Shown here: one piece after another, positions 2 through 34,099 of the stretch | Layout of the letters: each line of letters starts with the position of its first letter | Numbering within the stretch: the first letter of the stretch is position 1 | Translations under genes and position numbers: made by a program | Source of the DNA: Candidatus Kapaibacteriota bacterium | Lineage (GTDB): Bacteria > Bacteroidota > Ignavibacteria > OLB7 | DNA length: 64,000 nt | NCBI GenBank assembly: GCA_048594725.1 | Contig: JBMDXA010000199.1 | Location: forward strand, 159-64,158 | Reading direction: 5' to 3' | The notes under the pieces: generated by a model | The model's database searches: none | Seen by the model: the letters and a program-made list of their open reading frames with translations, nothing else | Told to the model about the DNA's origin: nothing

Positions 2-730
2 CTGGTAGGGATTATCGATGTGCGCCTGCGTGATCTCTGCGATCTGGACTCGTTCGCGCGTTCCTATCCGTATTATCGATTCAGCCTGTATTGCAAGTTT
101 GCTGCGAACCCCGAGTCTAAAGCAATCTTTGGCTCGCGTGGCCCCGAGCTTATAATGAATAGCCGTGAGGGGTGGAGTGACTTCAGATCGTGCGGAATCG
201 ATAGGAGCATGGGAACCCGGAATCAGAAGGCCTATCCCGGTACCTCCCCTTCACCTGATGCGATTGATTCTCTTGAGATCATCACCGATAGATTCGATTA
301 TGTGATCCGTGGGAATCCGGATAAGCCTGCTGGGACCTCGGGGCGATTAATCTTTGGTCTGGTAAAGCTACACAATAACTCTTCGGGGTACATGGTTGTA
401 GACAGCATCTATACCGATGATGATGCTACGGATGTTATCGGGCTACCTAACTGGACAAGAACAGATCCCTGTACGACCGTCGCCATCCCTCCGGGCGGAT
501 CGGCATTGGTAGAGTATAAATCCCGAGTCATCGATAAACGATTCGAGGGGAATACAAAAGGTTTTCTGGAAAACGGGCACAGCTTTAATGTCTTCGTTCG
601 GTTGAGAGGAAGTCAAGCGAAGCCTGCGAGTGCCACCGTACGGCTTGACTTGCAGGGACTTCGGCGCCAGGTCGCGGTGCCGGGCGTTAGCTCCACCAAG
701 GATGGTTACGATGCTCCTGAAGGTTCTTGA
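2..730 (+). CDS. hypothetical protein, small paralog copy 1 (5' end lies outside the window)
   Basis: The frame is open from the window edge (LVGIIDVRLRDLCDLDSFARSYPYYRFSLYC...) to TGA at 728-730. The last ~150 aa are about 50% identical to ORF 1058..1684 (DSLEI[IT]TDRF[DE]YV[IV]RG ... LRRQV.V.GVS...DGYDAPE). The N-terminal LCDLD.FA..Y..YRF.L.C motif is shared with ORF 784..1230. Confidence 0.6.
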   Translation: MVGIIDVRLRDLCDLDSFARSYPYYRFSLYCKFAANPESKAIFGSRGPELIMNSREGWSDFRSCGIDRSMGTRNQKAYPGTSPSPDAIDSLEIITDRFDYVIRGNPDKPAGTSGRLIFGLVKLHNNSSGYMVVDSIYTDDDATDVIGLPNWTRTDPCTTVAIPPGGSALVEYKSRVIDKRFEGNTKGFLENGHSFNVFVRLRGSQAKPASATVRLDLQGLRRQVAVPGVSSTKDGYDAPEGS

Positions 731-783
731 TGGGAAGATTGTAGATGGAATAGCGAGCTTCCGTTGTCAGTACAGAGTGAAGT

Positions 784-1684
784 ATGGGAAGCCAATACGT
801 TTTGTGGGTATGGATGTCGTTGCAAATCTGTGCCCTTCTGGTCGCAGTGGACAGCGAAAGCCGAGATGATAGGAAGCTGATGCCTCCATATCATCGCGAA
901 AAATCTATAGTAGTGGTGGATGAATACGGCTTCTATGTCGATAGCTGCATGATCGGGTATAGCACCGAAATCCATAATCCGTTCAGTTTCCCTCTGGATC
1001 TGATGGCCGTGCAGTCCAGCGGCGGATGGCGGATACCGTTCGTGTGGCAGGGGAGGGATGGAGGGCTTCGAATCCCGCCGGGGAGAAGTCTTCTGGTTGG
1101 CCTGCGGGATGGCCGCCTCTATGAGCTCTGCGATCTCGATGGCTTTGCAAAACGTTATCGCAATTACCGGTTCCTCCTCTCCTGTACCTTACGTTTCAGA
1201 GGGGAGTACCGGAGTTGCCGATTCTCTTGAGATCACCACCGACAGATTTGAATATGTCGTTCGTGGAGGTTCGCCTAAAAGTCCTTACGGGACAGGGCTC
1301 TCCGTTATCGGCCTGATAAAGCTGCGGAATCGCTCTTCCCGTCCCATGATACTTGATAGCGCCTATACTGGAAATTCCTATTCGAGTTTTACAGGGGTTC
1401 CATCGGAATTGATCTATGGTTCCTGCACGCGAATTCTGATTCCGGCCGGCGGAGCCGTAGCCCTGGAATATCAATCGAGAGTCATCGAAGAGGAGTTCGA
1501 TGGTGACATGGAGGCATTTCTCAATCAGGGGCACGAGTTCAAGGTATGCTTTCGATTGAAGGGGGGAAGCGGACAGCCTGCCACTGCCATGATTCGCCTT
1601 GGCAGTGATAACCTCCGGCGCCAGGTCAGAGTGGAGGGGGTCAGTTTGTCGAGAGATGGGTACGACGCACCGGAACTCCCCTGA
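784..1684 (+). pseudogene. small paralog copy 2, split by a frameshift (pseudogene, assembly indel or recoding site)
   Basis: The N-terminal domain (GRLYELCDLDGFAKRYRNYRFLLSC) is in the frame of ORF 784..1230, which stops at 1228-1230. The C-terminal domain (DSLEITTDRFEYVVRG...DGYDAPELP) is in the +1 frame (ORF 1058..1684). Copy 1 carries both domains in one frame. The switch must lie within about 1171-1229, next to a CCTCCTCTCC pyrimidine run. The start is uncertain (ATG at 784 or 880). Confidence 0.55.
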
Positions 1685-2065
1685 GCGAGGGCCGGAACGT
1701 CCGGAGGGGCAATAGTTCTGAAACTGCATATGCATTTCGGCAATGAGGTGGTTCCGGCCCCCGCTTTTTACGTATCAACGTTATCGAGAACCACCATGAT
1801 GAGAAGATGACAGGCATTCACCTCGGGCCGTAGCTTCCCGAAATATCTGTGCAGATCATACTGCCGGAGGGATCGTCCCCCGGCAGTTTATGCCGCCCAT
1901 CATGGGCATTGGATCTATCGCCACCATCGGCAGCAACAGCATCAGTAGATACATTGTCATGGCGGGACCTTCCGTGACCCTGGCGCGCGCTTTTCGTTCG
2001 ATACCACTGCAATCTTATCACTGCGATCATCCTTACAGAATCACTATGTATAATCCTTCATCACT

Positions 2066-5000
2066 ATGACCGCAAACACATTTTATCCAAGCATCAAGAC
2101 GCTTATCGATCCGGAGGATATTCCGGAAGCGTTGTCATTTGTTCGTGAAGGGGTCGATGCTCTTCTCGACGGAATATTTATCAAGGATCTTCAGATAATG
2201 AGTTCCGGAGCCGATGCAAAAGCCTACAATGTGGTGCTACATCTGCTCGGGAAATATCGCTTCGATATCCTCGGAAGCGGGCTTTCGCTCGTGGCGAATC
2301 CTACCTTCGATGAGAATGCCGTAGGGGGCGGGACCGATATCGAGATGACCGTCAGCTACAGCCTGCCGATTCTCCGATATCTGAGCGCCGGTTCGCTGGA
2401 ACGGTTTTCGTTGCAGGGAGGACCGATATTCGATCTGGCTCTGAATATTCTGGGGCTCGGCGAGGAACAACTGCTCGATGATGTGATCCTTCTATTCGAG
2501 GCTGATTCCATCCCCCGTTATGTAGATAAGATCAATTCCCATTATTCTCTTTCCGGTGGAAATGCCGTACAGAACCCCTCCGGGAGCACCCACGCCGAGA
2601 AGATCGCCAATCTGGCTGCGGCGCTGAAATCCAACCCCTATCTCACTGCCGAGGGGATATCTCCGGTGCAGGCCGTGTTCGAGGTCTCCGTCCAGGATGC
2701 AAACGGGGATCAGACCCTTGCCAACGTCAATCGGCTGTTTGAACGGAGGCTCGGTTCGTCGCCGGTTGACCGGATCAAGGATCTATTCATTCCCACGGTT
2801 TTTGCTTCGGCATATCTGAGCGCCGGGGTGGAGGTCTCGCCGAATATCCTCAAACCGATCAGCGCGGCTACCGGCGAAGTGATAAGCGATGGAAGCGTAA
2901 AAACCACCTTCGTGTTCGATGCCGGCGAGGTGCAGTTCAGCACAACCGGAGGATTCGGGTTCGGCGATTCGCTGACCGTGACCTTCCCGGAGGAATATCC
3001 TACCGCGCAGATCGGAAATACCGGGCTGACCATCGGCTTTACCGATGCGAAGCTCGATCTCAGCCGAAACTCAAATCTTCCGGAGATCGATCGGGACGGC
3101 CGGACGAGAGATTTTGTCGGGGTTTTTGTGGAAGAGGCTTCCATCGGTCTTCCGTCTTCGCTCTGGAATGTTCTCGGGAGCGAAGGGGCAAGAGCACGGC
3201 TGGTGGGACGCAATCTCATCATCGGAACCGGTGGGCTCTCCGGCACTATCGGTCTGGAAGGAGTGACCTCCGGAGGGACCACATACGATGTGCTGGAGGC
3301 GCGATTCGGCGGGGATGATGGATTCATCGTCCGGCTGACCCGTTTCGATATCTCTTTTCAGCAGGGGGCCGTGGTGGGGTCGAAAATCGAGGGGACGCTG
3401 GTGATACCGGGGTGGGAGAATGAAGCCGGAGGGGCGGTGGAAGTCCCGGTCTCCGTCACTCTCACGGATGGCGGGTTCGAGTTCAGCGCCTCTGCAAGCG
3501 GTCTGCACGAGGAATTGGCTATACCGGAAATTCTGGCCTATACGATCGAGCGGCTCCGGCTTGGCAAGCGTGAGAGCCGATATTTCGTCGAGACCTCCGG
3601 TACGCTCGACATCATCGCCGAAATTCCCGGTATCGGCACACGATTTATCACCCAGCCGATCGAGATCAACAGGCTGGTGATCTGGTCCGACGGAACGATC
3701 GAGCTGGATGGAGGCAACGTTATTCTGCCGGCGGCGGTCGCCTTGAATATGGGGCCGGTTGCGATGTCGGTCACGTCGCTTCATCTGGGGGCTTATCAGC
3801 AGCAGTGGGATGGCGTGGGGCGCCGCTACATGTATTTCGGGTTCGACGGGGGCATCAAGACCGGCCTCGGCGGCATCGATGCACGGGGGCGCGGGGTGAA
3901 ATTCTATTTCACGGTCGATGGCGGAGAGCTTCATACGTTCCTTCGGGTAGAGGCCATCCATATCGATCTTACGATACCGGGGGATGCCTCGGAGCAAACC
4001 GCCTCGCTTCTGCTGCATGGGTTCGTGTCGGTGAAAAATCCTGAACATCCGGGTGATCCCGAAGCTCCATCGTCGCCAGAAAATCTGGCCGCCTCGCCCG
4101 CCTATACCGAATATGCCGGCGGGATCGACTTTATGCTGCCGAAGATCGATATGGGGGGAGGCGCCTCCATGCGGATCGTTCCGGCCACCGGCGCTTTCCT
4201 GGTCGATACGCATATGAACCTTTCCACTCCGGTCGCCATCGGCAGTACGGGGCTCGGCATCTACGGATTTCAGGGGACGTTCGGCAACCGCTATGTGCTC
4301 TCCAAATCCGCCGCAGGAGTTTCCGACGAAGCCACCTGGTGGGAATTCTATAAGAAAGATCCCCGCGGAATCGGCATCACGAAATTCAGGGAGGAGGAAG
4401 GAATCTCCGTCGGTGCCGGGGCATCAATCGCCACGCTGGGAGATCAGGGCCAGGCATTTTCCAGCAAGCTTTATTTCATGCTCTCGATTCCGGAGGCGTA
4501 TCTCCTGGAAGGCCAGGCCGCTATCATGAGCCGCCGGCTCGGCCTTGACCAGGATGCCGATCCTCCGTTCTACGCCATCATCACGCTGGCACCCGGCGAC
4601 AGCATCAGCGCCAATTTCGGTGCAAATGTGAATATCCCGGACCCCGGCGGGGAAATTCTGGCGTTGCAGGCCAGCCTGGAGATGGCCTATTTCTTCGGTA
4701 AAAGCTCGGCATGGTATATCTATATCGGACGTGATGAGCCGCAGAGCGCACGAATCGAGGCCACACTGCTGAAGCTCTTCAACGCCCATGCGTATTTCAT
4801 GCTCGCGGCTTCCGGGATCAAGGCCGGTGCCGGCGTGGACTGGGAGTACAAGCAGGATTGCGGTATTGCCGTGGTCGGGCTGGGGGCCAGTCTGGAGGTA
4901 GGAGGGCGCGTCAGCTTCAAGCCGGTACAGCTCGGAGGCTGGGTGCGCCTGATGGGCTACGCCGAACTGAAGGTGTTCGGCATCGGGTTCCGTCTGCTCG

Positions 5001-8000
5001 CCAAGGCAATGCTCGCGGCCGAGGCTCCGCAACCATTCATCATCAGCGGAGGGTTTCAGCTCGGTCTGGATCTCCCCTGGCCGTTCGGTGATATCGATGT
5101 CAACGTAAACCTGAGCTGGCGTTTCCATGAACTGCCGGACAGGCGGCCGATCGGCAGCATCGACGCCGGAAAATATCCTTCGCTCGAAGCCTACAGGAGC
5201 GCGGCCACGTTCCCGGTGAAGGGGGTGAATATGATGTCGCAGGAGCCCTTCCTGCTGAATTATGTGAATCGCGATCATCCGGTTGATATCAGGACCGAGG
5301 ATTCATCGCTTCCGGCTCCCGGGCAGACCGGTGCCGATAGCTGGATCGGTGATTTCGGCGATTTCATCGTCCCGCTCGACACGTATATCGATGTGGAGTT
5401 CGCAAAGGGAGTGCTTCCGGTGGCCGGGAGCGAGTCGATGCGGAAATTCGTTCCTCCGATGTCCGGGGGAGTTTGCAGCGAACTGGTTCCGCCGCAACGA
5501 GGGCGTTCCAACCAGATCGAGCATACCTACAAGGTGCGCAACGTTTCGCTGTTCTACTGGACCGGCAGTGCCTGGGAGCCGTACCGGATGGAGCAGTTGA
5601 ATACGCCGCTTCTCCGGATACTGGAGGATGCGCAGGACCCGTCGCCGGAGGCCACGCTCGCCACCGTGCTTCGTTATGGCGCCTGGCAGGCCACTCTGGG
5701 GGGGAAGCACACCACGCTCCGCATTCTGGGCCGTACGCCGTTCGACCGGAACGCAACGCTCTCTCCCACGGAATCCGATTTTCCGCCCGCCTACCTTATC
5801 TGCCCGGAGGAGCCTCGTCCCATGAGCTGTCTGGACTGGAGCGAGGTTCCCCTTGCTACGCTGTACCCGGCGAACGAGGAAATCTTCGATCGTAAACTGG
5901 CTCTGACGGTCACCTCCGGGAATGCCGAAGTAGTGGCACTGCCGAATATATTCGGTCTGCCGCGCTCGCTGATGCTGAAGCGGAATGATCGCATCGAACT
6001 CCGTTTTCCGCAGCCTGTCAACAGCGTTGCGCTCAGGCTTTCCACACTGGCGGAGAATGTCACGATCTCCTATTACCGTGGATATGCCTACGTGCCGGGA
6101 AATGATGAGCAACAGGGAGGCACTTCTTCCGGCGACGGTGCCGATAGCTGGGAAATAGTGACGGCGGAGGAATCATCGGATGAAATCCTCTCCAGGCTCC
6201 GCGCCATGCCGGGATTTATCCGTGCGCTCTGCGAAGGCCCGCAACTTCCCGCCGAAACGGCCGGGCCGGTGGTTGCCATCGCGGAATTGATGGATGGAGT
6301 CTATGGAACCGTGCACACCTATCTGCGCCAGGTCATGGGGCTGGAGGTGCCTCCGGAAGAGGAGCCGGCGACGTTCTGCGACAGGCTTCGGGAGATGCTG
6401 CGAGTCATCATCGTCGGCTATACCGGCGGTATCCCTATTCCGGCGGTGTTCCGCTCGTCGGTGGAGCGATTCTATCGGGATGTGCAGACCTCCGTGGAGG
6501 CATTTCTCAGGCTGCCGGAGGGAGCAGGGCAGCCGCCCGACGGGGGGGCGGATCTGTTCTACGAGCAGTGGGGTGATCTCATCGCCTGTCTCGGGACGCT
6601 CTGCGATGCGCGGGGAAACCTGCCGGGATATATCGATGAGAGCATTGCCGTTATGATCGATCCGGCCATCGGCCAGTTGTACAACCGGCTGGCCGGGGAG
6701 CACTGGTATGGAAGCGGACTCTCGGCGCGCACCGATCTCCGCGACACCTGCGATCAGCTTCGTGCGGTTGCCGGCTTCATCGCGCTGGTTTCTCTCGATT
6801 ATCAGGAGCTCTCCGGCGGCATTATTCCGGGCATTCTCTCCCCGTACTACCAGACGCTGGAAGAGGGGGCCATTGCCGTGCGCGCGCTGATGAACCAGGC
6901 GTGGGCCGGGAACTGCATCCTCCCGTCATGCACCGGCGCTGCCGGTCTGGCGGAGATCGCACGGCTGTTCTGTACGGGCACCTTGCATACCGGCGCTGCA
7001 GCCGTCACCGGAATTGAAACGCTTCTTGATGAGTTCGAACCGGCGCGCGATGCCCTGCTGGAATCATTCGGATGGGATATGCCGGCCGGGAACTCCGGCG
7101 ATTTTTGTGCGAACCTTCGTGCCGCGCTGGAACCGCTGGTGGTGGCTCTCTCGGTTCTCGATGAGCTGCCGTTTTCGCTGCGTCGCTCCGTCGTGGAATT
7201 TCATGAGAAGCTTGGAGCGCTGGTTACGCAGTACAGGAGGGAGACCCTGGAGCTTCCTGCACCGGCGCCGGATCAGGAGGCCGATGCGTTCGCGGAAAAA
7301 TGGAACGCCATCTTCGCCTGCCTCTGCGCCATCTGCTCGCGCTCGCCGGAAGCCCTGGAACCGGTGGCCGGGAACCTTGATGAGGAACTCGGGACGTTAT
7401 TCGGGAATATCACCGCGCTGCTCCATACCGGGGCCGTAACCGGCGGACGCAGAATGCTTCTGTATGGCTCGCGGATGCCGGAGAGGCTGGAGGATCGTGT
7501 TGCCGGGCTCACCAACTTCTTTACCTCCTTTCTAACCGGGTGCTCCATAACGATGCCGGCGGGCGTTAAAGCGCGGCTGGATACCGCTTTCACAGCGTTC
7601 GATCAGCTCTACACCCAGGTGGAGCAGGCGCTCTCCGGCTATACTCTCTGCCAGGGGCCGCTGGGCGGGTACTGCGGGGAGTGGGGCGGACTGTTCGAAT
7701 GTCTGCGCGGCCTTCGCCTGCGCCAGAGCGAATATCCCGCCGGGATTCGCAATCAGATCGGTGGGGAGGAACTGGGCGATATCGTCGATTCGATCTACCG
7801 TATCGCGCTGGGCTTTACTCCCACCGAGCCTGTTCTCGTTCCGGCGGGAAGCGATCTGCTCCTTCTGGAAATCGAAGGGGTGCTGAAATTCTTCTATGAA
7901 TATTGCCTGCAAGGGGATGATATCCCTACGAACAAGGAACAGGCGCTTGCTCCCTATCTGGAACAATTACGTCTGCTTTTTTCGAGAATAATCGCGCTGC

Positions 8001-10633: not shown

Positions 10634-10686
10634 TCACCTGATCCCGGGTTCTACCGGGATGCATCGATCGCTCTGCCGGTGCCGGA

Positions 10687-10720
10687 GGCGCCCATCGGGA
10701 TAGATCTTCCGATGGGCGCC
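10687..10720 (+). other. perfect 12-bp stem-loop in the 173-bp spacer between the two giant genes
   Basis: GGCGCCCATCGG (10687-10698) pairs with CCGATGGGCGCC (10709-10720) across a 10-nt loop, with no T tract after it. A second 7-bp hairpin, ATCCCGG/CCGGGAT, lies at about 10641-10660. Confidence 0.6.
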
Positions 10721-10806
10721 GGCGCCGGTGGATTCGTAGCCGGGAAATCACCGCCTCATACCGCAAAATATTGCCGGAATAATTATTCAATAGAATTGCA
10801 TTCATT

Positions 10807-13800
10807 ATGAATCAGCAGATCGCCTTGTTATCGCTAACCCGGGTTGCCCACTTCGGGAGTTTTATCGGAGGAAATTTTACTATTACGATCCAGGCCGCCG
10901 GAGATACCACCGTCCTGCAGGTTCAGATCCCTTATGGAGGAGGGACCGACCGGGATGAGCTGCTGGCCGGCAAGGAGATTCCGAATGGAACCTGGACGAT
11001 GATGCCTGTAAACGTTTCCGTTCAGGCCATGAGCCCCCAGTTCGGCGGAACCGGTTCCGGCTCGACCGCGTTCCAGGTAAGCACCACCAACCAGGGCCCC
11101 TATTATCTGGATGTTCCGGTTGGTGCCATGACCGGGCCATCCGCCACCATACGCCTGACGTTCGAGGCCACCGTCTGGGAGTGCGAGGCTCCGTGTGATG
11201 AGGCCGGCTGGTATTGCGGCGGATATCACGAGCGATCGGTCTATTATAAATGGCTCTGTGCGGGGAAGGATCACACCTCGTTTAATCAGCTCGCTTCCGT
11301 TCAATCGCTCGATACGCTGCTGGTGGCTTCGCTTCCGGTCTTCAATGCGGTGCAGAGCAGCCTTGTGCTGAATTACCAGCCTTCGGTCTCCACACTGTTC
11401 CAGCGGCTGGATTATGCCCTGGATGTCACCACGGCCGCGGTCGATCGCTGGAGCCAGCTGACATGGCGCCGCAGGTACCAGATAAATCAATTCTCGGCGA
11501 ATTTCGTCGAGAGGGGCATCGCATATCTCGGGGAGGCCGTGAAGAAGCCCGAAATAGAGCCCCCTGCCACGCCGGTCTGCATCAAATGGCACGATCTTCT
11601 GCGATGCCTCTGCGCGTTCAATGCACGGCGTTCCACACTGCCGGGCGCTGCGGTGAATCAATACGATGTCGATCTCCTGCCCCATATCAATGCTCTCTTC
11701 TGGGAGGTCATCGCGATTGCGCAGAACGAGGGGATAGGGACGTTGCTGGATCAGAACCGCACCGATCATTACGAGAAGGTCCGTTATATCGCGGCGTTTT
11801 TCGAGTACTGGTGCCGCCGTTGCGGATACGGCGGATCGGGATCACTCGGGAATATCGAATATTATTATCCCCTGCTCCAGCAGAGATATGAATCGCTGAT
11901 CTCCAGCGAGTCCATGGAGGGAATTACCCTTTGCGAGCCCACGCTGGAGGAATTGTGCGATCGCTGGCTCGAAATTCTCTCCTGCATCCGCAAGCTCTGC
12001 GATCTGCGCGCACAGCTGCCGCAGGGGGTAGTCGATGATATCGTAACCACGTTCGAGGATCTGGTGGCATCGTTGCAGCAAAGCCTGATGTTTCTTGGAG
12101 GAACCTTCCTTCCGGGAATCGAATCCCTTTGCGTACGGGCGGGGCTGGCTGCATCGGGCATCGAAAAATATATCTGCCCGGATAACCTGCTCCCTGGAGG
12201 TGCGGACAGGCGCGATGCGCTCGAAGCGCTGCTGCTCCAGTTCGAAAGTGCCATGGATGGCTTCATCGCACGCAACGGAGATCTCTGCAAGGATGAGATC
12301 CCGGTCGGTCCGGAATTCTGCGATGACTGGCTCGATCTGCTCGGCTGCCTGAAGCGGATCTGCGACGGCAGGCGTGAAATGCTTCCCGATCTGCGCTCGG
12401 CATTCTTCGGCCTCCTCTTTATTCCGGTCAGGCATCTCTATCATATCGTCAGCGATACTCCCTTGTCGGATGCACCGGCCGGTATCGGCGAGCTTTGCTA
12501 TCGCATCGGCTATCTCCATACGGCGTTTTCCGCGATCTGCTCCGAGGGAGTTATCGACCCGATACTCAAGCTCCATATCGATGGCTATCTGGCCGGGCTT
12601 CAGGATGCGCTCGATGAACTGAAGGATGAATATCCCGATATCTGTGCGGAAACTCTCCTGCTCGATCCCGATTTCTGTCCCGATATGAAGGAGATCCTCG
12701 CCTGTCTGCGCCGCGTGTGCGATCAGGCCGATATCCTGCATCCATCGGTGCTGGAATATTTTCTGGATGAATATTATAATCACATCGATTATCTCTACTG
12801 GCTGGTGCTCGATATTCCGTCGGAATATGAACTTCCCGCGGTACGGCTGGGCGTCGGCGCGATGTGCAGCCGGCTGGAGGCGATCCAGGAGTATATAGAT
12901 GCGATCTGCGAGTTGGAGGAGGCCGATCCTATCCGCAAGATGAGGCTGGAGTACCAGCTCGGTGGGCTCCGAAGCGCGCACACCGCTTTTCTCCTCCGCT
13001 ATCCTGCTCTCTGTACCCCGCAGCCCGGTTATAACTGCATCGACTGGCTTGCGATGCTCGATTGCCTGGCCCGCCTGTGCGACAAAAGAGTATGGCTGGA
13101 GAGATATCATCCTGAGGTGATAACCAGAATCATCGAATTATTCGGCGGGGAGGAGCCACAGGAGGATTCCCCTCTGGATGAGGTGTTCGATCCGCTGTTC
13201 CCCACGCTGCCGGCGCCTGTTCCCGGCGGGAGCATCGACCGCATCTGCTACAAGGTCCGGAGCGTCCTGGACCGCCTTGCCGGGCATTGCGTCTGCGGCA
13301 TATCGCTGGACCCCGCGCAGCTGGGCGCGCTGGAAGCATGGCTGATTCCGTTCCGGGAGGCCTATCAGGAATTGATGACCGATATGACCATCCTTGAAAC
13401 CGTGCACTGCGATGATGCAGATATGCAGTGCGACCGGTTTGCCAGGATCGTGGCATTTCACCGTCTGCTCTGCCGGGAGGAGTATGATGCCTCATCTCCC
13501 GCTATCACCGCCATCGCCGGCCTGTTGCAGGAGTTTTCCGATGAGCTTCCGGCGATCATCCTCCAGCTTGGGTTCAATCCGTTGTCGGTAACGATTCCCG
13601 ATGGGAGCGATCTCTGCGAGTTGCTCGATTTTACGCTGCTGGTGCTGGCGCCGGCTTCCGCCGATACCGGGAAACTCCCGGTGGAGACCCGCTACCGGAT
13701 CGATTGCTTCTTCGAGGCATTGCGCGCCCAGGTGGAGCTGTATGCTCCTGTTGCGGAGAACCGCCCCATCCTCTGCCCGGCAGGGGAGTGCGATGATCTG

Positions 13801-16800
13801 GTGGATCGCTGGCTGGAAATCTTTATCTGTCTCTGCCGGATCTGCAACGAGCAGGCCAACCCGGTCTGGTATGATACCCCGGAGGCAGGGAGCATCCGCA
13901 CATTTATCGAAAATGAAGTATGCCCGCAATTGCTCGCACTGCACCCCACTCTGCGGGATATTTCCGAATCGCTCCAGTTGCCGGTCGATCTCGGTTTCGC
14001 CGCAACGGAATCGTGCTGCCTTGTGGTACATGATGCTCTGGTTCTGCTGGCGGCCATCGGCCTTCGGTGCGATACGCTGAATTATCAGGGGATATCGCCG
14101 TACGAACTGGATCTCTTTTATGAGTCGATGCAGCAGAAGATGGCGCAGTTGAACGGCCTGCTTGCGGTGGCGGGGCTGTTCAGCTGCCGTACCGAGTGCG
14201 ACGAGTGGAAGGGAATGCTGGAATGTCTTGCCGATATCCTTCTTCGGGGAGACCGGGTTTCACCGGCTCTTGCCGCGACGGCCGATTCTCTGTTCGGTGA
14301 CTCGATCACCGGGCTGTATGATGCGCTCTATACCGATGGCCCGCTCGATCCTCCCGCTTCCAGCCCGGTACCTCCGGCGGCGTTCGGTGAGAGTTCGTGG
14401 AAACTTCTAGTGGCGCTCAAGGGGATGTATCGTCTCTGTGCGCCCTGGTCGGCGCGCTGGAGCCGGGAGCTGGAGGAGCCGCTGGCCGCGCTGCTGCTGG
14501 AGTTCAGGGGAGCGTACGCCACGTTCCTGATGGCGCTCGACGCCGAAGGCATAACCGGTTGCGGGCGGATGGAGCCGGAGTGCGACATGCTGGGGGAGAT
14601 AGCGGAGATCAGCGCCCGGTTCTGCAATGGGGATGCCGATCCGCTGGATGCTCCCGTGGCGGTTGCCGCCGGGCTGCTCGCCAATCTCTCGGACGAACTC
14701 CAGGATATCGCCTCGCAACTCCGGCTGGCATGGACTCTCCCTTCGGGAAATAATTTCTGCGTGCGGCTCGGCTCCGTGCTGGGCCTGCTCGGGGTTGACC
14801 TTTCCCGTCCCGGCGAGCTTACGGCATCGCACCGCCTGCTGGCCCGGTTCATCTTCGCCATTCTCCGGGAACAGGCGGCGGAATATGGAAGAGTATTTCC
14901 AGAGCGAGCCGGGGAACCGCCCGCGCCGATGCGGGCCTTCCGCGGGAGCTGGATGGAGATGCTCGATTGCATCTGCCGGACCTGCGAGCAGTTGCGGAGC
15001 ATGCCGAAGAGCGTTCTCGACGGATTGACAGCGGTGAAGGGGCGTTTCTCCCAGATGGAGATCCGGATCGATGTGCTCTATCCGGTTATCACCACACAGG
15101 CGGCGGCGCTCGGCGTGGGGCTGGGCGATCTCGATTGTGTGAATTCCTCCTGCGGCAAGCTGGCTGTTATCAGGCTCTTCTTCGCATTGTACGGGATAAG
15201 CGCACCGGAGCCCTCGCCGGGGCTTGTGACGCTGCTGGCCGGATACCAGCAGAGCCTTCGCGCTGCTCTGGCCCTGCTGCGGGGAGCATTGCAGGACGCC
15301 GGGCTCGATCCATGCGGCGGGCAGGGGGATGCGGCGAGCACGATGGTGCAGTCGCCGCACCTGTATATCCAGGCTGCGGGATCTACCGGTGCCGATGGGT
15401 CGGTGCCGGGCATCCATCTTCGCTGGGCGCTGCTGGAGGGGCTGGCGGGGCATCTGCCGAAAGGGGATCTGGCCGCTCCCTACGGACCCTATCCCGCCGA
15501 TTATGGATATAATCGTCCGGATGATGTGGTGCGCCTTTATCGAACGCCATACGATGAATTGGTTGCGGCATTTCCGGTACTGCTGGACCTGACCGCCATG
15601 CGCCCGGTACGGGTCTACAAGGCCGCCGGTGCACCGGTCTTGTGGGAGTTCGCTCCAATCCCGTCCGATCCGACGTTCCCGGATGTATCGGCCACGGCCA
15701 TCATGCTCCGCTTCGCCGATCCCGATCTGTACGACGATACCGATCATGACGATCCGCAGAATATCCAGGGCGATGTCCAGTATATTCTCAGCCATTATAC
15801 CGGTGTGCTCGATGTGCAGCCGATCGATAAAACGCTGTTCGTTCTGGATGTCACGGTGGCCGCTGCCGGGGCCGATCCGCTGCTGGAGGTGGAGACCGTT
15901 TCCGGTGGAATGGCTGCCGGGGATGACCGCGGTATCATTTCGGGGAGAAGGGCCTTTCATGGCAATGCATCGCCTCATCGTGTCATCAACGAGGGAGTAC
16001 AGTATGCGCGGCTGCGCTGGACCGACTGCTCTCCGGCCACCATCTCAATACAGACCTACAGCGATTATTACTGGGGAATCAGTAGAAGATATGGCTGGGA
16101 GGAGGTAGGGGAATTTTCTCTTTCGCTCGATCGTGACGAGGTCTACAAGCGCCTGGAGGATCGAGAGCATTTCACGGTGCATAAATCCTGGCCGAAATAT
16201 CAGAACGATCCGGCCGACGCAAGCGGGCGGGGACGGGTGAACGTCTGCAATTACCGGGATCGCTGGGATCGAAATCCCGCGCCTCATTCCAATCCCGAAT
16301 ATGCCTGCCAGGATTACGAGCGCGATCCCGAGGATTCGCTGGCCTTCGCCGTTCAGGAATATCTCGAAAAGAGCAGCATCCCCGGCAATGCCGATCCCTA
16401 CGTGCAGCGGCGTTCGAAGCTGCAATCATTCACCGGCGATCAGGCGGAGATCCGTCTGAGCCTGCTTCAGATCCTGAATCTCGCCGCGCAGGATTATCAT
16501 GTGGCCCGGATGCTCGGCCTCGGGTATATCGATTGGAGCATTCCATCCCTTCCCGGAGGATCGGGGCAGCGGTATATCTATGCGGCGGAATATATCGTGG
16601 CACCACGACGTGGACGGGTGCAGGCGCCGTCGGGAAAGCATCTGTATCTCACCCTTCCCACGGCCCAGACCGATCATCGTCTGCCGGTGGGGCCAAGCCT
16701 TGCAACCGGCACAGATCCGGCCGCCATCGAGTTCGGTCTTCCCGCGTTCGATGCCGATTCGGCTCCGATGACCGACCAGGAGGGATATACCCCCTATGGC

Positions 16801-19800
16801 GGCGCCCGTTTCATCCGGCTGCACAAGGATGCCCTGGTATTCGATCTTCCGGCTTCGACGCCGTTTTTCGAAGGGGATGAAGAGTTCAGCCGCATGGAGC
16901 ATACCCGGCCATTGTTCTACGGGGTGACCCTGCATCGCCTGAACGGCAGCGAATACGAACGGGTCTGGCCGGAGATAAGCAATGATGCCGGGGGGTACGA
17001 GCGGGATGATTATAATCCCTATGCCGATGCCTCGCCGGAGCATTATCCCGAGACCATCGGGATTCCGGAAACCACCAGTGACGATGGGCCGTTTTTCATC
17101 CACCATCTGGTCAAACCTCAGGAGGACCCCGATCCGCTGGTCTATCAGGCAAAGCTTGCGAGGGTGGAGGGAACCTTCAACTATGGCCTGTATGGCATCA
17201 ACTGGTTTTCGCGCGCCTCGGAGGTGAATATTCATCCGGAGCCGGTGACCACCCAGTTCCCGAAACGGAATACCATCAAGCCCCCGCTGAATCTGACAGC
17301 GCATCATATTCAGGAGGAATATCCGCGCATATTTATTTCCGCCTACGAGGCCGCGCATCTGGATGATCTCGGCGGCACAACGCGTGTGACGTTCGATTGG
17401 AATCATATTCAGAACGCCGCCTACAGGCGAGCCGATCTCGTCGAATTCTTTTTCCGCAGCTCTCCTCCGGCCCGGGTGATGGGGGAGATAGCCCGTGTGC
17501 GCGAACTTCACGGCACCCGCCGTGTGCAGGTGCAGACACGGAGTTATACCGATTATTCCGTGGAGACCGATCCGCCGGGCGGGCTCGTGATAGAGCCTGC
17601 GATCTCCTCCGATGACGTGTCCGGAAATCTTTTCACCGGAAGCCTGCTCGCTACCGGAGCGGGGAAGTTCGTGATAGCCGATGTGGCGCGTGATGGCGAC
17701 GGGTATGCCGTGTTTACGCTGGAGATGACCGCCGAGGATATCGGGGAGCGCAGGACGTACGTTGCGCCGAAGGAGGGGGAACGGTTTCTGGTAGTGGAGA
17801 ATCTCGCCGATACCGGCAGGTGGAAGCCGCTTCCCGGTTGCAGCATCCCTCTGGTTTCCTTCTCCGACCATGTGGAGCGCCATGTGCCCGCCGCTACAGG
17901 GCGTGAGGTGATCGATCATGTGGGAGGGATCTACGAGCCAGCGGCCATCGTTGCGGCTGCCGTGGATGGGGCCTATACCATCACGTTCCAGAATCCATCC
18001 GGCGTGCTGCTGCCGTATCATGAGTATCCCGAGGGGGCCGGTTCAGCAGTATCGGAGCATCTGGAGCGGGTCGAGTGGTATGGGGGAAGCGTGCGGATAG
18101 AGGATACCTCCGGCGCCATCCGCACGCTGAACGTTGTGCGGATCGAGACAGTGCCGGGCGATCCCTCCGTCCCCGCCGTTCCCACGGTGCTGCATGTGGC
18201 CGAGCAGTCCGGTGGCGGCGTCTCTCTTGCGGGAACCGGCACGCTGGTGGAATTCCATCCATCGTATCGAGCCTATCTGCGCCTTGGCGATGCCGGTATC
18301 GATCTGGCGGCGGAGGTGCTTCCGGCCGGGCGCGAGCAATCGCGCACCACATTTATCGCCGCGCGTGCGGTGGATACCACGGAGTGCCATACGGCCGGCG
18401 GCATTACGTTCTGCCATAGCTCCATGCTTACGCTGCCGGTCCCGCATCTGGCGCGCAGGATCATCGTGCCGCAGGTGCCGGCTCTCCCCGATAATCCGCT
18501 GGTTGCAACGCGGCCGGATTATTATGGAAAATCGACCTATTCCTTCGATGTGTATTTCGCCGCGCGCGACCTTTCCGGCGGGCTGCGCGATCCCTATGCG
18601 ATGGTCTTCTACCGCAGCAGCGAGCTTGATCTGCTTCAGGCGCTCTATAGCGATACGACCGTTGCATCGATCCTGGGCCAGTTGCCGGCGGCGGGGGACG
18701 ACTCGTCTCTGGCCGCGCGGTGGCGGTCATTATTCGGCGTGGAGACCGAGACCGAAGAGACCACCGCAGAGCCGGAGGATATCGGGACATTCCGGCGCTA
18801 TGGCGGGTTCGGATTTCCGAATCCGGACCGGAGCGATTTCTTCACGGAGGATCTCGATAATCCGGGTACCACCATTGCTCCGTTCGCCGTTCCTCCGGGG
18901 GAGACCGGGCACCGGAAGCCGGCCGATGTGGAGCGATATATCCGTATCGCCATCGAAGGGGCATTCCTGCCGCTGACGGAGCGTCCTGTGTTCTTCGATC
19001 TTGTGGCCGAGGACCCGCTCCTGCGGACGTCGCAGAACGCCCCGGTGATCCGGAACCGGAACGGTGATCTCCTGAAACCCGCGCTCAGGGCCGCCGATGG
19101 CTCCATCCTGCGGGATGCGGACCCCGGGTTCGATCCCTATCCGATGGTGCGCCGCCAGGAGGGGGAAGTGGAGCTTTCCGGCGACGCGGAGCATCGGAAG
19201 TGGCGGCAGGTGCGTTTCGCCGATTATTCCCTGGATGGCGCCTCGCGGAATATCTATTTCTATTGCGCGCGCGAACTCTCCAATACCATGGTCTCCGGCC
19301 AGCGGAGCGGCATGATAGGGCCGGTGCGCCTTATCAATACCTATCCCTCGGTGGCGCCCGGCATACGGGCGGTTCATGCCCGGCCCCGATCGTATTTCGG
19401 CCAGACCAGAGATGCGATCGCCTTCGAGATCGCAGCCTATCCGGCGAGCGAACATGTGGAACGGATTCGTATCTACCGCGCCTACGCCGCTGAACAGGCC
19501 GTCACTATCCGGACAATGACGATGGCCGGGGAAGTTCCTCTTCCCGCCGACGGAATAGTCCACGACTGGTTTGCCGGCGCTCTTCCGCATTATGGCGAGC
19601 CGATCTATTATCGCCTGACGGCGTTGCGGCGGATCATCAACGAGGGGGGGATGGAGGAGTATATCGAATCGCTTCCGTCGGAAACGATCGTTACCAATAT
19701 CGTGGATGGAATTGCTCCGGCTGCGCCTGCGATTTCCGCAGCATACGATGGTGCATATCCCGGTGTGCTGAGCGATGTGGTGCTCACCTGGAATCCGACC

Positions 19801-20028
19801 ACCTATAATGCGGCGTATCATCTTTTCAAGATGAACGAGCGGGGCAACTGGGAGAGCATACACCAGGTGCAGTCGGATACGAATACGGAGATGTCATACG
19901 CCTATCCCGACGATCTGCCCACGGCCTCCGGAGGCAAGAGGCTGTATCACCATTTCAAGGTGGCTGCGGTGAATTCCTCGGGATTGCCCAGCAGGGAGGA
20001 GCGGATCGTGACGTTGCCGGGAGAATAA
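10807..20028 (+). CDS. giant hypothetical protein B (3073 aa), family not recognised; FN3-like C-terminal domain
   Basis: A 9.2-kb ORF with protein-like composition. It has a short beta-rich N region (aa 1-256), a Cys/Trp helical repeat array (aa ~257-1504) and a long beta-rich C region. It ends in an FN3-like domain (PAAPAISAAYDG...VVLTWNPTTYNAAYHLFKMNERGNWESI...YHHFKVAAVNSSGLPS). There is no signal peptide or T9SS CTD. Confidence 0.85.
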   Translation: MNQQIALLSLTRVAHFGSFIGGNFTITIQAAGDTTVLQVQIPYGGGTDRDELLAGKEIPNGTWTMMPVNVSVQAMSPQFGGTGSGSTAFQVSTTNQGPYYLDVPVGAMTGPSATIRLTFEATVWECEAPCDEAGWYCGGYHERSVYYKWLCAGKDHTSFNQLASVQSLDTLLVASLPVFNAVQSSLVLNYQPSVSTLFQRLDYALDVTTAAVDRWSQLTWRRRYQINQFSANFVERGIAYLGEAVKKPEIEPPATPVCIKWHDLLRCLCAFNARRSTLPGAAVNQYDVDLLPHINALFWEVIAIAQNEGIGTLLDQNRTDHYEKVRYIAAFFEYWCRRCGYGGSGSLGNIEYYYPLLQQRYESLISSESMEGITLCEPTLEELCDRWLEILSCIRKLCDLRAQLPQGVVDDIVTTFEDLVASLQQSLMFLGGTFLPGIESLCVRAGLAASGIEKYICPDNLLPGGADRRDALEALLLQFESAMDGFIARNGDLCKDEIPVGPEFCDDWLDLLGCLKRICDGRREMLPDLRSAFFGLLFIPVRHLYHIVSDTPLSDAPAGIGELCYRIGYLHTAFSAICSEGVIDPILKLHIDGYLAGLQDALDELKDEYPDICAETLLLDPDFCPDMKEILACLRRVCDQADILHPSVLEYFLDEYYNHIDYLYWLVLDIPSEYELPAVRLGVGAMCSRLEAIQEYIDAICELEEADPIRKMRLEYQLGGLRSAHTAFLLRYPALCTPQPGYNCIDWLAMLDCLARLCDKRVWLERYHPEVITRIIELFGGEEPQEDSPLDEVFDPLFPTLPAPVPGGSIDRICYKVRSVLDRLAGHCVCGISLDPAQLGALEAWLIPFREAYQELMTDMTILETVHCDDADMQCDRFARIVAFHRLLCREEYDASSPAITAIAGLLQEFSDELPAIILQLGFNPLSVTIPDGSDLCELLDFTLLVLAPASADTGKLPVETRYRIDCFFEALRAQVELYAPVAENRPILCPAGECDDLVDRWLEIFICLCRICNEQANPVWYDTPEAGSIRTFIENEVCPQLLALHPTLRDISESLQLPVDLGFAATESCCLVVHDALVLLAAIGLRCDTLNYQGISPYELDLFYESMQQKMAQLNGLLAVAGLFSCRTECDEWKGMLECLADILLRGDRVSPALAATADSLFGDSITGLYDALYTDGPLDPPASSPVPPAAFGESSWKLLVALKGMYRLCAPWSARWSRELEEPLAALLLEFRGAYATFLMALDAEGITGCGRMEPECDMLGEIAEISARFCNGDADPLDAPVAVAAGLLANLSDELQDIASQLRLAWTLPSGNNFCVRLGSVLGLLGVDLSRPGELTASHRLLARFIFAILREQAAEYGRVFPERAGEPPAPMRAFRGSWMEMLDCICRTCEQLRSMPKSVLDGLTAVKGRFSQMEIRIDVLYPVITTQAAALGVGLGDLDCVNSSCGKLAVIRLFFALYGISAPEPSPGLVTLLAGYQQSLRAALALLRGALQDAGLDPCGGQGDAASTMVQSPHLYIQAAGSTGADGSVPGIHLRWALLEGLAGHLPKGDLAAPYGPYPADYGYNRPDDVVRLYRTPYDELVAAFPVLLDLTAMRPVRVYKAAGAPVLWEFAPIPSDPTFPDVSATAIMLRFADPDLYDDTDHDDPQNIQGDVQYILSHYTGVLDVQPIDKTLFVLDVTVAAAGADPLLEVETVSGGMAAGDDRGIISGRRAFHGNASPHRVINEGVQYARLRWTDCSPATISIQTYSDYYWGISRRYGWEEVGEFSLSLDRDEVYKRLEDREHFTVHKSWPKYQNDPADASGRGRVNVCNYRDRWDRNPAPHSNPEYACQDYERDPEDSLAFAVQEYLEKSSIPGNADPYVQRRSKLQSFTGDQAEIRLSLLQILNLAAQDYHVARMLGLGYIDWSIPSLPGGSGQRYIYAAEYIVAPRRGRVQAPSGKHLYLTLPTAQTDHRLPVGPSLATGTDPAAIEFGLPAFDADSAPMTDQEGYTPYGGARFIRLHKDALVFDLPASTPFFEGDEEFSRMEHTRPLFYGVTLHRLNGSEYERVWPEISNDAGGYERDDYNPYADASPEHYPETIGIPETTSDDGPFFIHHLVKPQEDPDPLVYQAKLARVEGTFNYGLYGINWFSRASEVNIHPEPVTTQFPKRNTIKPPLNLTAHHIQEEYPRIFISAYEAAHLDDLGGTTRVTFDWNHIQNAAYRRADLVEFFFRSSPPARVMGEIARVRELHGTRRVQVQTRSYTDYSVETDPPGGLVIEPAISSDDVSGNLFTGSLLATGAGKFVIADVARDGDGYAVFTLEMTAEDIGERRTYVAPKEGERFLVVENLADTGRWKPLPGCSIPLVSFSDHVERHVPAATGREVIDHVGGIYEPAAIVAAAVDGAYTITFQNPSGVLLPYHEYPEGAGSAVSEHLERVEWYGGSVRIEDTSGAIRTLNVVRIETVPGDPSVPAVPTVLHVAEQSGGGVSLAGTGTLVEFHPSYRAYLRLGDAGIDLAAEVLPAGREQSRTTFIAARAVDTTECHTAGGITFCHSSMLTLPVPHLARRIIVPQVPALPDNPLVATRPDYYGKSTYSFDVYFAARDLSGGLRDPYAMVFYRSSELDLLQALYSDTTVASILGQLPAAGDDSSLAARWRSLFGVETETEETTAEPEDIGTFRRYGGFGFPNPDRSDFFTEDLDNPGTTIAPFAVPPGETGHRKPADVERYIRIAIEGAFLPLTERPVFFDLVAEDPLLRTSQNAPVIRNRNGDLLKPALRAADGSILRDADPGFDPYPMVRRQEGEVELSGDAEHRKWRQVRFADYSLDGASRNIYFYCARELSNTMVSGQRSGMIGPVRLINTYPSVAPGIRAVHARPRSYFGQTRDAIAFEIAAYPASEHVERIRIYRAYAAEQAVTIRTMTMAGEVPLPADGIVHDWFAGALPHYGEPIYYRLTALRRIINEGGMEEYIESLPSETIVTNIVDGIAPAAPAISAAYDGAYPGVLSDVVLTWNPTTYNAAYHLFKMNERGNWESIHQVQSDTNTEMSYAYPDDLPTASGGKRLYHHFKVAAVNSSGLPSREERIVTLPGE
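11578..15320 (+). repeat. protein-level array of 10 super-repeats (~120-130 aa each) with conserved Cys/Trp motif inside giant B
   Basis: Type-I cores start at 11578, 11955, 12316, 12672, 13033, 13426, 13801, 14194, 14578 and 14938 (spacing 356-393 nt). The consensus is C-x(3-10)-C-D-x-W-[LM]-E-[IM]-L-x-C-[IL]-x-R-[ILV]-C-[DN]-x(4-7)-[LM]-P, for example LCDRWLEILSCIRKLCDLRAQLP, FCDDWLDLLGCLKRICDGRREMLP and NCIDWLAMLDCLARLCDKR. They alternate with type-II helices of the form C-x(14-16)-C (LCYRIGYLHTAFSAIC, MCSRLEAIQEYIDAIC). Confidence 0.8.
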
Positions 20029-20564: not shown

Positions 20565-20630
20565 ATTCGATTTCGAACTTCGGATTTTCGATTGGGAGAG
20601 GAGATTTTACGATTTCAGATTTTCGATTAT
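20565..20630 (+). repeat. GATTTTC-heptamer intergenic element (copy E1; satellite copy at 20777..20789)
   Basis: The sequence is attcgatttcgaacttcGGATTTTCGATTGGgagaggaGATTTTACGATTTCAGATTTTCGATTatat. It shares the GATTTTCGATTGG core with the copies at 30953, 40813, 42937, 44893 and 51813 (reverse strand). Confidence 0.7.
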
Positions 20631-20921
20631 ATACCTGATAGACCCAACCATGCCAGATGCATCACGCAAAGCCGCGAAGGCGCAAAGAAGAGGTCTTTCT
20701 TTTCGCCTTCGCGGCTTCCCGTGGGATTCTTCTGGAAGTGCCCACTCAGGGTCGCTGGAGTATATAGTTGCCTTCAGATTTTCGATTGGAAGCGAGGAGG
20801 GGCCGCCGACGGGAGGCCTGCTGTCAGTAAGCAGTCGCCTTCGTCCGTGGCAGCTCCAACGAGACTGCGGGAGTCTAGGGATATTCCCGGAATAATGGAA
20901 ATAAGCTCCTTGACCGGCTGG

Positions 20922-21992: not shown

Positions 21993-22070
21993 GCGTGGGG
22001 GATGAGTTGATGGAGGGCGCGCAGCCCTGAGCCGTTTGCGGCGCGTCGTGCCGCTTGTGCGTTCGCCGGC

Positions 22071-22109
22071 AGCAGTATGCGCGAGCAGTATGCGCGAGCA
22101 GTATGCGCG
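22071..22109. repeat. perfect 13-bp x3 tandem repeat (AGCAGTATGCGCG) between the response regulator and kinase genes
   Basis: Units at 22071-22083, 22084-22096 and 22097-22109 are identical. They lie in the 247-bp gap between the RR stop (22240) and the preferred HK start (21992). Confidence 0.9.
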
Positions 22110-22239
22110 GGGCCTGCGGCCGCTGTAGCCGGCAGCAGAGACGGAAGGGGAGAAATCGCCGGAGAGCCTCATCCCGCATCCCTGCCTTTCTGCTACCAGC
22201 CACGATCTACGAACTTATCTCTACTCTGGCAACTCTCCT

Positions 22240-22941: not shown

Positions 22942-23409
22942 GTAATCACTTGAACTGTAGGAGGGCACCTGAGCCCGGTTTGCAGAGGGGGTCCGGCAGG
23001 CGCCGGAGATAGCCTCTTCCGCCTCGATCTCAGGTATGCAAGTTAACATTGCGCCCCGGCTTTATCCAGACTGCGGAGGGGGGAAGGGGGGTCAAGATTT
23101 CTTAACATTGGGGGATGGGAGTCCACAAGTCCGGGAGCCGGGGAGAACGAAGATGGGGCGTGATGCCTGGGCGCCGCTGTGCTCCTGATTCCTCCGGCTC
23201 CCGCACCTCTTGACTCTCCCGGAGGCTTGAAATCTCTTTTTTCAGGGAGATACAAAGTTTTGCCGCTGAAATCGTTGCCGTAATCGTCTCCCGCTTGCTA
23301 TGTTTGTTGACTGTATAAGTTTTCCGGCGCACAACTCACTCCTTGCACACCCGTGAAAGTGGGAGTTGGCGGCGGCCCGGAGTTCCATCCGGACCATTCG
23401 GGAGGAACC

Positions 23410-25230: not shown

Positions 25231-25248
25231 GGAAGTGGGTTTAGATCG

Positions 25249-25345
25249 TAGTGCTTAGTTCTTGGAGCTTAGTGCTTAGCAGAGAAGAACCATCTCTCGC
25301 TAAGCACTAAGGACTACAGCCGCCGCAGGCGGCGTCCTAAGAACC
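25249..25345. repeat. heptamer-word palindrome plus conserved GC hairpin between atpB and atpE
   Basis: GCTTAGTGCTTAGC ... GCTAAGCACTAAG are inverted words (reverse-complement forms of TAAGCAC/TAAGAAC). They are followed by CAGCCGCCGCAGGCGGCG (25317-25334) and TCCTAAGAAC. Confidence 0.75.
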
Positions 25346-26403: not shown

Positions 26404-26418
26404 TCGGAGTTCCAGTAT

Positions 26419-34090: not shown

Positions 34091-34099
34091 AGGAAAGGA

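Follow-up and report, generated by a model that had tools for sequence, protein, structure and literature searches.

The closest described systems with which a pair of giant bacterial genes of the present kind can be compared are the Tc (ABC) toxin complexes (TcA, TcB and TcC), contractile injection systems and phage baseplates (Baseplate_J/gp6, gp7 and tail fibres), polymorphic toxin systems, and envelope proteins of the TamB, AsmA and LptD type. For polymorphic toxins it has been established that subtilisin domains serve as processing peptidases, including those of toxins exported by the Photorhabdus virulence cassette (PVC) pathway (Zhang et al. 2012, PMC3482391). A further point of comparison is the Pfam family DUF6603 (PF20248), which is uncharacterised and for which our literature searches returned no paper mentioning either name. 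Here we analyze a locus at the beginning of a 64,000-nucleotide stretch of DNA from a Candidatus Kapaibacteriota bacterium (contig JBMDXA010000199.1, positions 159 to 64,158), the whole of which we call the window. The locus contains two giant open reading frames (ORFs), G1 (2066..10633, plus strand, 2855 amino acids) and G2 (10807..20028, plus strand, 3073 amino acids). Both are present in the ORF list of the window, co-directional and separated by a gap of 173 bp, just as a preliminary description of this DNA had reported.

We find that G1 and G2 belong to a conserved gene cassette whose product is probably a large protein machine of a hitherto undescribed kind. The cassette has three co-conserved core proteins, G1, G2 and an upstream-encoded protein designated A, which together total ~5000-8500 residues per locus. 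Its carriers are abundant bacteria of soil, freshwater and the sea, for the most part Bacteroidota and Acidobacteriota; relatives of G1 are encoded in at least 125 species-level genomes and relatives of G2 in 310. A G2-like gene lies directly after a G1-like gene in 74 of 80 loci, which bears out the earlier proposal that the two giants act together. Within the clade of this bacterium both giants additionally carry arrays of a Cys-bearing helical repeat. Neither the cassette nor this repeat matches any characterised family or system searched and, judged from sequence comparison, both are new; literature searches found no description of either, and database records list the family only as "hypothetical" or DUF6603.

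The Tc complexes resemble the cassette, by analogy only, in having co-directional giant genes of ~2000-3000 amino acids without signal peptides, beta-rich shells, receptor-binding immunoglobulin-like (Ig-like) inserts and enzymatic cargo in the same operon, and a cell-wall hydrolase gene near the cassette in some relatives extends the analogy. However, the cassette differs from Tc toxins in having no VRP1, TcA_TcB_BD, SpvB or RHS/YD signature and no PxxxxDPxGL motif. No Tc, Rhs or teneurin chain appears in the lists obtained by structural searching with Foldseek, and no pore-forming helical channel domain was recognised.

Authenticity and anatomy of the giant proteins

One might suspect that ORFs of this size are chimeras created by assembly, or frames that happen to be open in DNA of high GC content. 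In favor of such an artefact are the high GC content of the window with its many long shadow ORFs on other frames, the contig end ~600 bp from the locus, and a frameshift in one copy of a small upstream gene. Against it, at least 12 independent assemblies (loci L003/L004, L007, L170 and L174-L193) contain full-length orthologues with 34-38% identity that agree in domain order, length and number of repeats, and the gene order is preserved among hundreds of remoter homologues. The matching orthologues in independent assemblies therefore rule out assembly chimeras; we reject that explanation for the giant ORFs and regard an artefact of either sort as having a negligible probability.

Neither giant has a signal peptide or a transmembrane segment, with the maximum 19-residue Kyte-Doolittle mean remaining below 2. 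G1 consists of an N-terminal core (amino acids 1-1347; 2066..6106, plus strand) delimited by BLASTP conservation, alignment and AlphaFold modelling, a clade-specific insert (amino acids 1365-2340; 6158..9085, plus strand) and a C-terminal core (amino acids 2346-2838; 9101..10579, plus strand). The C-terminal core is marked by conserved alignment columns and by 33% identity to amino acids 1669-2147 of a Dokdonia protein (BLASTP). The insert region is missing in most homologues, and the Dokdonia protein has ~230 amino acids at that place (BLASTP). A search of a 5.8-billion-protein collection returned 50 homologues of G1, all of them unnamed or "hypothetical", and a genome scan found relatives encoded in at least 125 species-level genomes. 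Their Bacteroidota hosts include Pedobacter, Mucilaginibacter, Chryseobacterium, Dokdonia, Tenacibaculum, Aquimarina and Fluviicola, and their Acidobacteriota hosts include Pyrinomonadaceae and Thermoanaerobaculia.

The AlphaFold model of G1 covers amino acids 1-1200 and was computed from a 26-sequence alignment; it is of moderate confidence by pLDDT (72.6), with a pTM of 0.40. It depicts an alpha/beta plus helical head (amino acids 1-240) followed by a very large antiparallel beta-meander of ~45 long strands (amino acids 244-1020). The best PDB matches of the N-terminal core in Foldseek are LptD and ApoB100 (E 3e-6 to 2e-5), with SlpA, ushers and porins at lower ranks, the weakest of these having E values above 1e-3. 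A search of BFVD yielded nothing meaningful; a chorein-N protein is listed there at E 1.2e-3. These matches, together with the long and regular predicted meander, would be expected if G1 were a bridge-like lipid-transfer protein of the TamB, AsmA or VPS13-like kind or a giant envelope beta-barrel. The TM-scores of 0.10-0.16 nevertheless indicate a generic beta-meander only, the pTM of the model is low, G1 has no N-terminal transmembrane anchor or signal peptide, and Pfam and NCBIfam contain no AsmA, DUF490 or TamB match to it. We consider an envelope beta-groove function very unlikely.

The beta-meander appears to be distantly related to DUF6603. G1 itself matches neither DUF6603 nor any other Pfam family even at E<=1, but its distant homologues P0048 (36.4 bits) and P0049 (38.1 bits) exceed the DUF6603 gathering score of 27 bits, and the scores of P0008, P0021 and the Dokdonia protein lie slightly under this threshold. 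Additionally, a "DUF6603 domain-containing" protein encoded on a Mycetohabitans megaplasmid aligns to G1 amino acids 314-1268 with an E value of 5e-46. The meander (~amino acids 430-1020) can thus be taken as a divergent relative of DUF6603 on transitive grounds, not because it matches the model directly. The range of DUF6603 relatives extends to Proteobacteria, Planctomycetia and haloarchaea. Since the family has no known function, membership explains nothing about mechanism.

G2 has a different anatomy, as its clade-specific part (amino acids 1-1500) is N-terminal and contains eight Cys-bearing helical repeat units located by a repeat hidden Markov model (HMM) at amino acids 201-1441 (11407..15129, plus strand). 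At this array position other lineages have either nothing or Ig-like Big_1/Invasin_D3 domains. The conserved core (amino acids 1512-3073; 15340..20028, plus strand) is delimited by 168 homologues, their alignment and AlphaFold modelling; it opens with QSPxLYLQAAGSxGxDGSxxGIHLRW, contains DYHVARMLGLG and ends, on inspection of the sequence, in an FN3-like domain. The 168 homologues were obtained with the C-terminal core as query, whereas with full-length G2 as query the repeats dominated the search and a single protein came back. Orthologues from the same clade are 3066-3284 amino acids long, and the core is encoded in 310 species genomes, some Planctomycetia and Alphaproteobacteria among them.

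A model of G2 amino acids 1512-2711 (33-sequence alignment; pLDDT 75.6, pTM 0.61, moderate confidence) shows a chain of beta-barrel and beta-sandwich modules. Riboflavin-synthase barrels come first among its Foldseek matches in the PDB, followed by phage tail-tip and baseplate chains (lambda gpJ, N4, Chi, Sf11 and JBD30) with probabilities below 0.4 and TM-scores below 0.1. For both giants the Foldseek results appear to show general fold classes and not homology.

The preliminary description had noted a long Cys-bearing helical repeat array in both giants, and the array is real. The unit is helical, ~115-120 amino acids long and has the core motif LC-x(6-8)-C-x2-W-x5-C-L-x3-C. The repeat HMM finds four strong units of ~115 amino acids in G1 (amino acids 1441-2170) in addition to the eight in G2, and counts of four in G1 and seven to nine in G2 recur in at least 12 related loci, the four G1 units being present in every member of the clade. 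Exceptions are a shorter G2-like protein (L008/L182) with three units and the contig-truncated L181 with five. A scan detected no DNA tandem repeats; this and the stable unit counts across loci indicate that the arrays are old and stable. The repeat is specific to a Kapabacteria-like clade, where it occupies the site taken by Ig-like or lectin modules in other lineages. It is a new type of repeat and may serve as a modular scaffold for binding.

By BLASTP the clade-specific repeat arrays are the sole feature common to G1 and G2. The two G1 cores (amino acids 1-1347 and 2346-2838) show no relation to the G2 core in BLASTP, and hhalign gives a probability of 0.06. The earlier view of the giants as a diverged paralogous pair is accordingly abandoned, as their conserved cores are unrelated and only the repeat module is shared. 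A common plan of beta-rich, helical and again beta-rich regions, which had also been proposed, does not fit G2 with its N-terminal helical array.

Sequence searches against known families were negative throughout. At a cut-off of E<=1, Pfam, NCBIfam, PHROGs and PADLOC (the last searched with five window proteins) contain no match to the giants or to the small upstream genes, and the PDB contains no sequence match to them. Profile searches against the PDB with alignments of G1, G2, the A core, a further cassette protein designated family 2 and two small-gene families gave nothing real, and a huntingtin match among them was rejected as low-complexity polyQ. Walker A, HExxH, RTX, YD and RHS-core motifs are absent from the giants by regular-expression search. 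With respect to classical giant adhesins, G1 and G2 have no match to a repeat family (RTX, cadherin or Ig), no RTX motif and no signal peptide. Neither Por_Secre_tail nor any other C-terminal sorting domain of the type IX secretion system was matched in Pfam or NCBIfam. The observations that the usual signatures of giant proteins and a type IX sorting domain are missing, and that no characterised family accommodates the giants, thus stand after sequence, profile and Foldseek searches that gave no confident match.

Gene order and variable content of related cassettes

ORF clustering was performed on 87 loci, with synteny counts made over 80, 61 and 56 loci. The cassette order is A, family 2 (present in ~20 loci), zero to six variable small genes, G1 and G2. 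The A core lies upstream of G1 in 56 of 61 loci, in line with the earlier expectation that the locus extends upstream, and the A gene of this genome presumably lies beyond the contig end; the contig, at 64605 bp, exceeds the window by only ~600 bp, both ends summed. The A protein has a conserved core of ~450-700 amino acids that occurs alone, in proteins of ~700 amino acids, or inside proteins of up to ~2900 amino acids; frequently it is joined to an S8 subtilase or to a different hydrolase. The long forms have an N-terminal Peptidase_S8 domain (E 1e-16 to 1e-21), and some also have Peptidase_C15 and CarboxypepD_reg. For example, in the closest complete relative (L170) G1 is immediately preceded by the gene for a 2638-amino-acid S8/C15 peptidase protein, and small genes are absent from the interval. 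The family 2 protein is ~1000-1100 amino acids long, and a family-20 protein carries PG_binding_1. No signal peptide or transmembrane helix is present in any of the core proteins A, family 2, G1 and G2.

Giants of other lineages carry Big_1, Invasin_D3, Filamin, Laminin_G_3, 3keto-disac_hyd (ConA-like), IgGFc_binding and TSP_C domains at their variable positions, and such domains are typical of extracellular binding proteins. A second source of variation is the slot between A and G1, which is occupied by one or more additional ORFs in 44 of 56 loci. Its genes belong to many unrelated families, are often tandemly duplicated (for example at L022, L060, L067 and L019) and include several lipoproteins. 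A comparison of ten of them with immunity families in Pfam gave one RNase_T exonuclease and nothing else. This is a 182-amino-acid RNase_T-family 3'-5' exonuclease (Pfam E 2e-14) whose gene is one of the variable small genes preceding G1 in a Pedobacter locus (L019, 6249-6797) and a Fluviicola locus (L038, 8982-9527).

In the window, two tandem small genes precede G1. Copy 1 (2..730, plus strand) comprises the 3' 242 codons of a ~337-amino-acid exported protein cut by the contig start; it is 85% identical to amino acids 97-336 of a relative, P0173, and ~96 N-terminal residues are lost to the contig end. Copy 2 is disrupted by a ~42-residue deletion relative to copy 1 plus a frameshift. Its N-terminal part, in frame 1 (784..1230, plus strand), has a signal-like N-terminus and an LCDLD motif and runs to a stop after the frame change, and its C-terminal part, in frame 2 (1205..1684, plus strand), was located by tblastn and by reading the sequence directly. 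In tblastn, positions 901-1215 (frame 1) match amino acids 33-137 of P0173 with 50% identity and positions 1205-1675 (frame 2) match amino acids 180-336 with 44% identity. Copy 2 is a pseudogene, two separate ORFs or an assembly error. The two had been described as tandem copies of a ~250-amino-acid gene; they are indeed true paralogues, but the full length judged by P0173 and P0174 is ~335 amino acids and copy 2 is split between frames.

A HMMER search of 1.84 billion representative proteins found just two relatives of the small gene, P0173 (337 amino acids, 85% identical) and P0174 (331 amino acids, 31% identical). Both have an N-terminal signal peptide; P0174 has an LLGC lipobox and adjoins a patatin/Omp85 gene on a short contig. 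Same-clade cassettes, including those of the closest relatives, do not contain the gene. Because there are only two relatives, because these have signal peptides and because the gene is absent from same-clade cassettes, the small paralogues are, as far as their sequences indicate, exported near-orphans and not conserved partners. The former suggestion that they are accessory partners of the giants is not supported, and the statement that the locus has no Sec signal holds for the giants but not for the small paralogues. GC content, which had been estimated by eye to be lower over the first ~2 kb, was computed as 0.531 in the first 2 kb, 0.56-0.62 over G1 and G2 and 0.59-0.65 in the part of the window that follows them. 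The position of the paralogues, their tandem duplication, the decay of one copy and the lower GC content fit a fast-turnover variable slot of the cassette.

Polymorphic toxin systems (PMC3482391) offer a parallel to this arrangement, with a large protein bearing an S8 subtilase followed by diverse and often tandem small genes. They differ from the cassette in that no recognised trafficking domain, toxin domain or immunity family is found in the latter, in that the small genes precede the giants and do not stand behind a variable C-terminal toxin, and in that A shows within-clade conservation of its C-termini.

Flavobacteriaceae cassettes extend beyond G2 with one to several tail-fibre-like genes that share the N-terminal motif KxYFETGDxPTxxQFxDLIDS and match phrog_23676 "tail fiber" at 1e-17 and phrog_25032 at 8e-35. 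The spans concerned are L213 12546-19052, L237 14586-18192, L228 5158-8410 and L001 22741-24469. At L213, L237 and L228 the fibre genes are followed by an Amidase_3-like gene, a gene for a ~160-amino-acid lipoprotein and a 107-amino-acid gene, and L001 has a fibre-like gene and an amidase. A conserved "MAVPNNYNFSL..." protein is encoded after the fibre-like genes in L213 and L228. These genes could be a lysis/release module or a cell-wall-attack module. In the haloarchaeon Haloferax mediterranei, plasmid pHME322 (L171, 168387-181500) has in a row a G1-like gene of 1858 amino acids, a gene of 1370 amino acids and a gene of 1142 amino acids whose product is a Baseplate_J protein (Pfam E 2e-12). 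The 1370-amino-acid protein aligns with the DYHVARMLGLG region of the G2 profile at an hhalign probability of 16%.

Fibre and amidase genes, a Baseplate_J neighbor, the weak Foldseek matches of G2 to lambda gpJ and to N4, Chi, Sf11 and JBD30 chains and the lack of signal peptides in the core proteins, consistent with Sec-independent export, are all features reminiscent of contractile injection systems. G1 and G2 could on these grounds be highly diverged giant baseplate or tail-tip proteins of a tailocin-like or contractile-injection-like particle, or could supply peripheral parts for a contractile injection system or type VI secretion system encoded elsewhere. The surrounding genes argue otherwise. 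Precomputed Pfam annotation of neighboring genes, which covered seven loci (the other ~150 loci being classified only by BLAST against cassette proteins), shows no sheath, tube, spike, tape-measure, capsid or terminase gene within +-10 kb, no ATPase gene, no gp25 and no Baseplate_J gene, the latter occurring only in the distant Haloferax cluster. In Haloferax no sheath or tube gene lies within 15 kb of the cluster, and hhalign found no relation of the G2, A and family 2 profiles to the Haloferax Baseplate_J protein. G1 and G2 have no PHROG match, their cores gave no tblastn match in 50,697 phage genomes, and a relative is present on a single one of 2.9 million IMG/VR contigs. With the Foldseek values for phage chains as low as given above, descent from a phage tail seems unlikely.

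In Mycetohabitans a cassette comprises three genes, in order those for a 1322-amino-acid protein that weakly resembles the C-terminus of G2 (E 1e-6), for a phospholipase D-like enzyme and for a 2496-amino-acid DUF6603 giant, and is flanked by insertion sequence (IS) elements and toxin-antitoxin genes. This setting raises the alternative that the giants are sensors or scaffolds of an intracellular conflict or anti-phage defence system in which proteases or phospholipase D enzymes are the effectors. The absence of export signals, the presence of S8 and C15 peptidases and of the phospholipase D-like enzyme, the variable small neighbors and the several copies in some genomes all agree with it. Arguing against defence are the lack of a PADLOC match, of an NTPase, helicase or nuclease sensor domain and of a Walker A motif, and also the Ig-like, lectin, FN3 and tail-fibre modules, which are unusual for cytoplasmic defence proteins. 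In addition, more than 6000 residues of beta-rich structural protein are rare in defence systems. We judge a defence function improbable.

Several G1-G2 cassettes, two or three in number, were observed within single genomes, namely L174, L178 and L182/L008 in the metagenome-assembled genome (MAG) SZAS-92 and L177 and L179 in Kapaibacterium SMAG_U6034, with L176 and L233 as a further case. This suggests paralogous expansion or cassette exchange.

Possible role of the cassette

We tentatively favor, on the basis of genomic context, a complex of A, G1 and G2 that is released independently of Sec and acts on other cells outside the producer, either as a toxin or in adhesion. It is favored because of the synteny of the core genes, the absence of signal peptides from the core proteins and the binding-type inserts of the giants. 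It is favored also because of the hydrolases, namely S8 and C15 domains in A, PG_binding_1 and the phospholipase D-like gene of Mycetohabitans. Further reasons are the fibre and amidase genes, the Baseplate_J gene of Haloferax, the diverse tandem small genes and the precedent for subtilisin domains in polymorphic toxins (PMC3482391).

Such a complex would be a conserved apparatus of several proteins, functionally analogous to Tc toxins or phage-tail-like particles, in which G1 and G2 are the two large structural subunits and A is the third core subunit. The apparatus would be made without Sec signals, would be released or exposed by a Sec-independent route, and would bind and damage other cells. 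G1 would contribute a very large antiparallel beta-sheet body in the form of a barrel, cocoon or belt, and G2 a chain of beta-sandwich and beta-barrel modules. Both giants would present a lineage-specific binding module, which would be Ig-like or lectin-like elsewhere and the Cys-helical array in the Kapabacteria-like clade. The enzymatic activity, used either for processing or for toxicity, would come from A. Accessory proteins particular to each lineage, with a role in immunity or as chaperones or adaptors, would be encoded by the variable small genes that lie between A and G1, and the two exported paralogues of the window sit in this variable slot.

Several observations weigh against an extracellular toxin or adhesion complex. 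The Foldseek matches of both giants are generic and weak, with TM-scores below 0.2. Cys-rich helical repeats in proteins that lack a signal peptide may just as well function as metal-binding modules in the cytoplasm. Neither a domain for toxicity or trafficking nor an immunity family was identified in the giants, in the core of A or in the small genes, and within a clade A does not have hypervariable C-termini. The fibre and amidase genes seen in Flavobacteriaceae are missing from the window and from Kapabacteria-type loci alike.

It is possible, if on balance doubtful, that A, G1 and G2 constitute an unrecognised class of Sec-independent machine that delivers enzymes to other cells or attaches to them, with the Cys-helical repeat as its targeting module. 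We hold with equal reserve the corollary that its parts are not homologous to those of Tc toxins, contractile injection systems or any secretion system. A delivery or attachment machine of this kind would represent a new mechanism of antagonism or predation in Bacteroidota and would provide a function for DUF6603. Carriers of the cassette include the cultivable and genetically tractable hosts Pedobacter, Chryseobacterium, Flavobacterium and Dokdonia.

Surroundings of the locus

G2 is followed directly in the window, on the minus strand (20922..23049), by a gene pair that encodes a HisKA/HATPase sensor kinase and a response regulator of the OmpR type; next, on the plus strand (24154..29580), comes an F-type ATP synthase operon. 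Given this minus-strand pair and the ATP synthase operon beyond it, the locus ends at 20028. The kinase/regulator pair is not conserved beside the cassette in relatives. The sole Rfam match in the window is a tRNA far downstream (48984..49068, plus strand). Two further ORFs look like shadow ORFs of GC-rich DNA, one of 1500 amino acids (33617..38119, minus strand) that overlaps two plus-strand ORFs (34100..36442 and 36554..37987), and one of 463 amino acids with a TTG start (20592..21983, plus strand) that has no Pfam match and overlaps the histidine-kinase gene on the opposite strand.

Neighbors of the cassette in two other loci may be mentioned. At L170 (19901-21520) G2 is followed by a gene for a 539-amino-acid protein with faint AAA+ matches (Sigma54_activat and AAA_5) that has no counterpart in the window. 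At L006 (1-990, minus strand) a gene for an eCIS_core (DUF4157) protein lies ~8 kb upstream of the cassette on the opposite strand; its presence is probably coincidental because it was found at this one locus only.

The ATP synthase subunit AtpA of the window is 85% identical to that of one MAG and ~75% identical to those of Candidatus Kapaibacterium and Ignavibacteria, which places the host among Kapabacteria- or Ignavibacteria-like Bacteroidota. The closest relatives of the genome and of the cassette are MAGs titled "uncultured Alphaproteobacteria", represented by loci L089 (CAYWXV010000001.1), L170/L176/L233 (CAYVWR01...) and L181/L190 (CAZJYH01...). The AtpA and cassette genes of these MAGs group with Kapaibacterium and Ignavibacteria, and the Alphaproteobacteria labels therefore look wrong.

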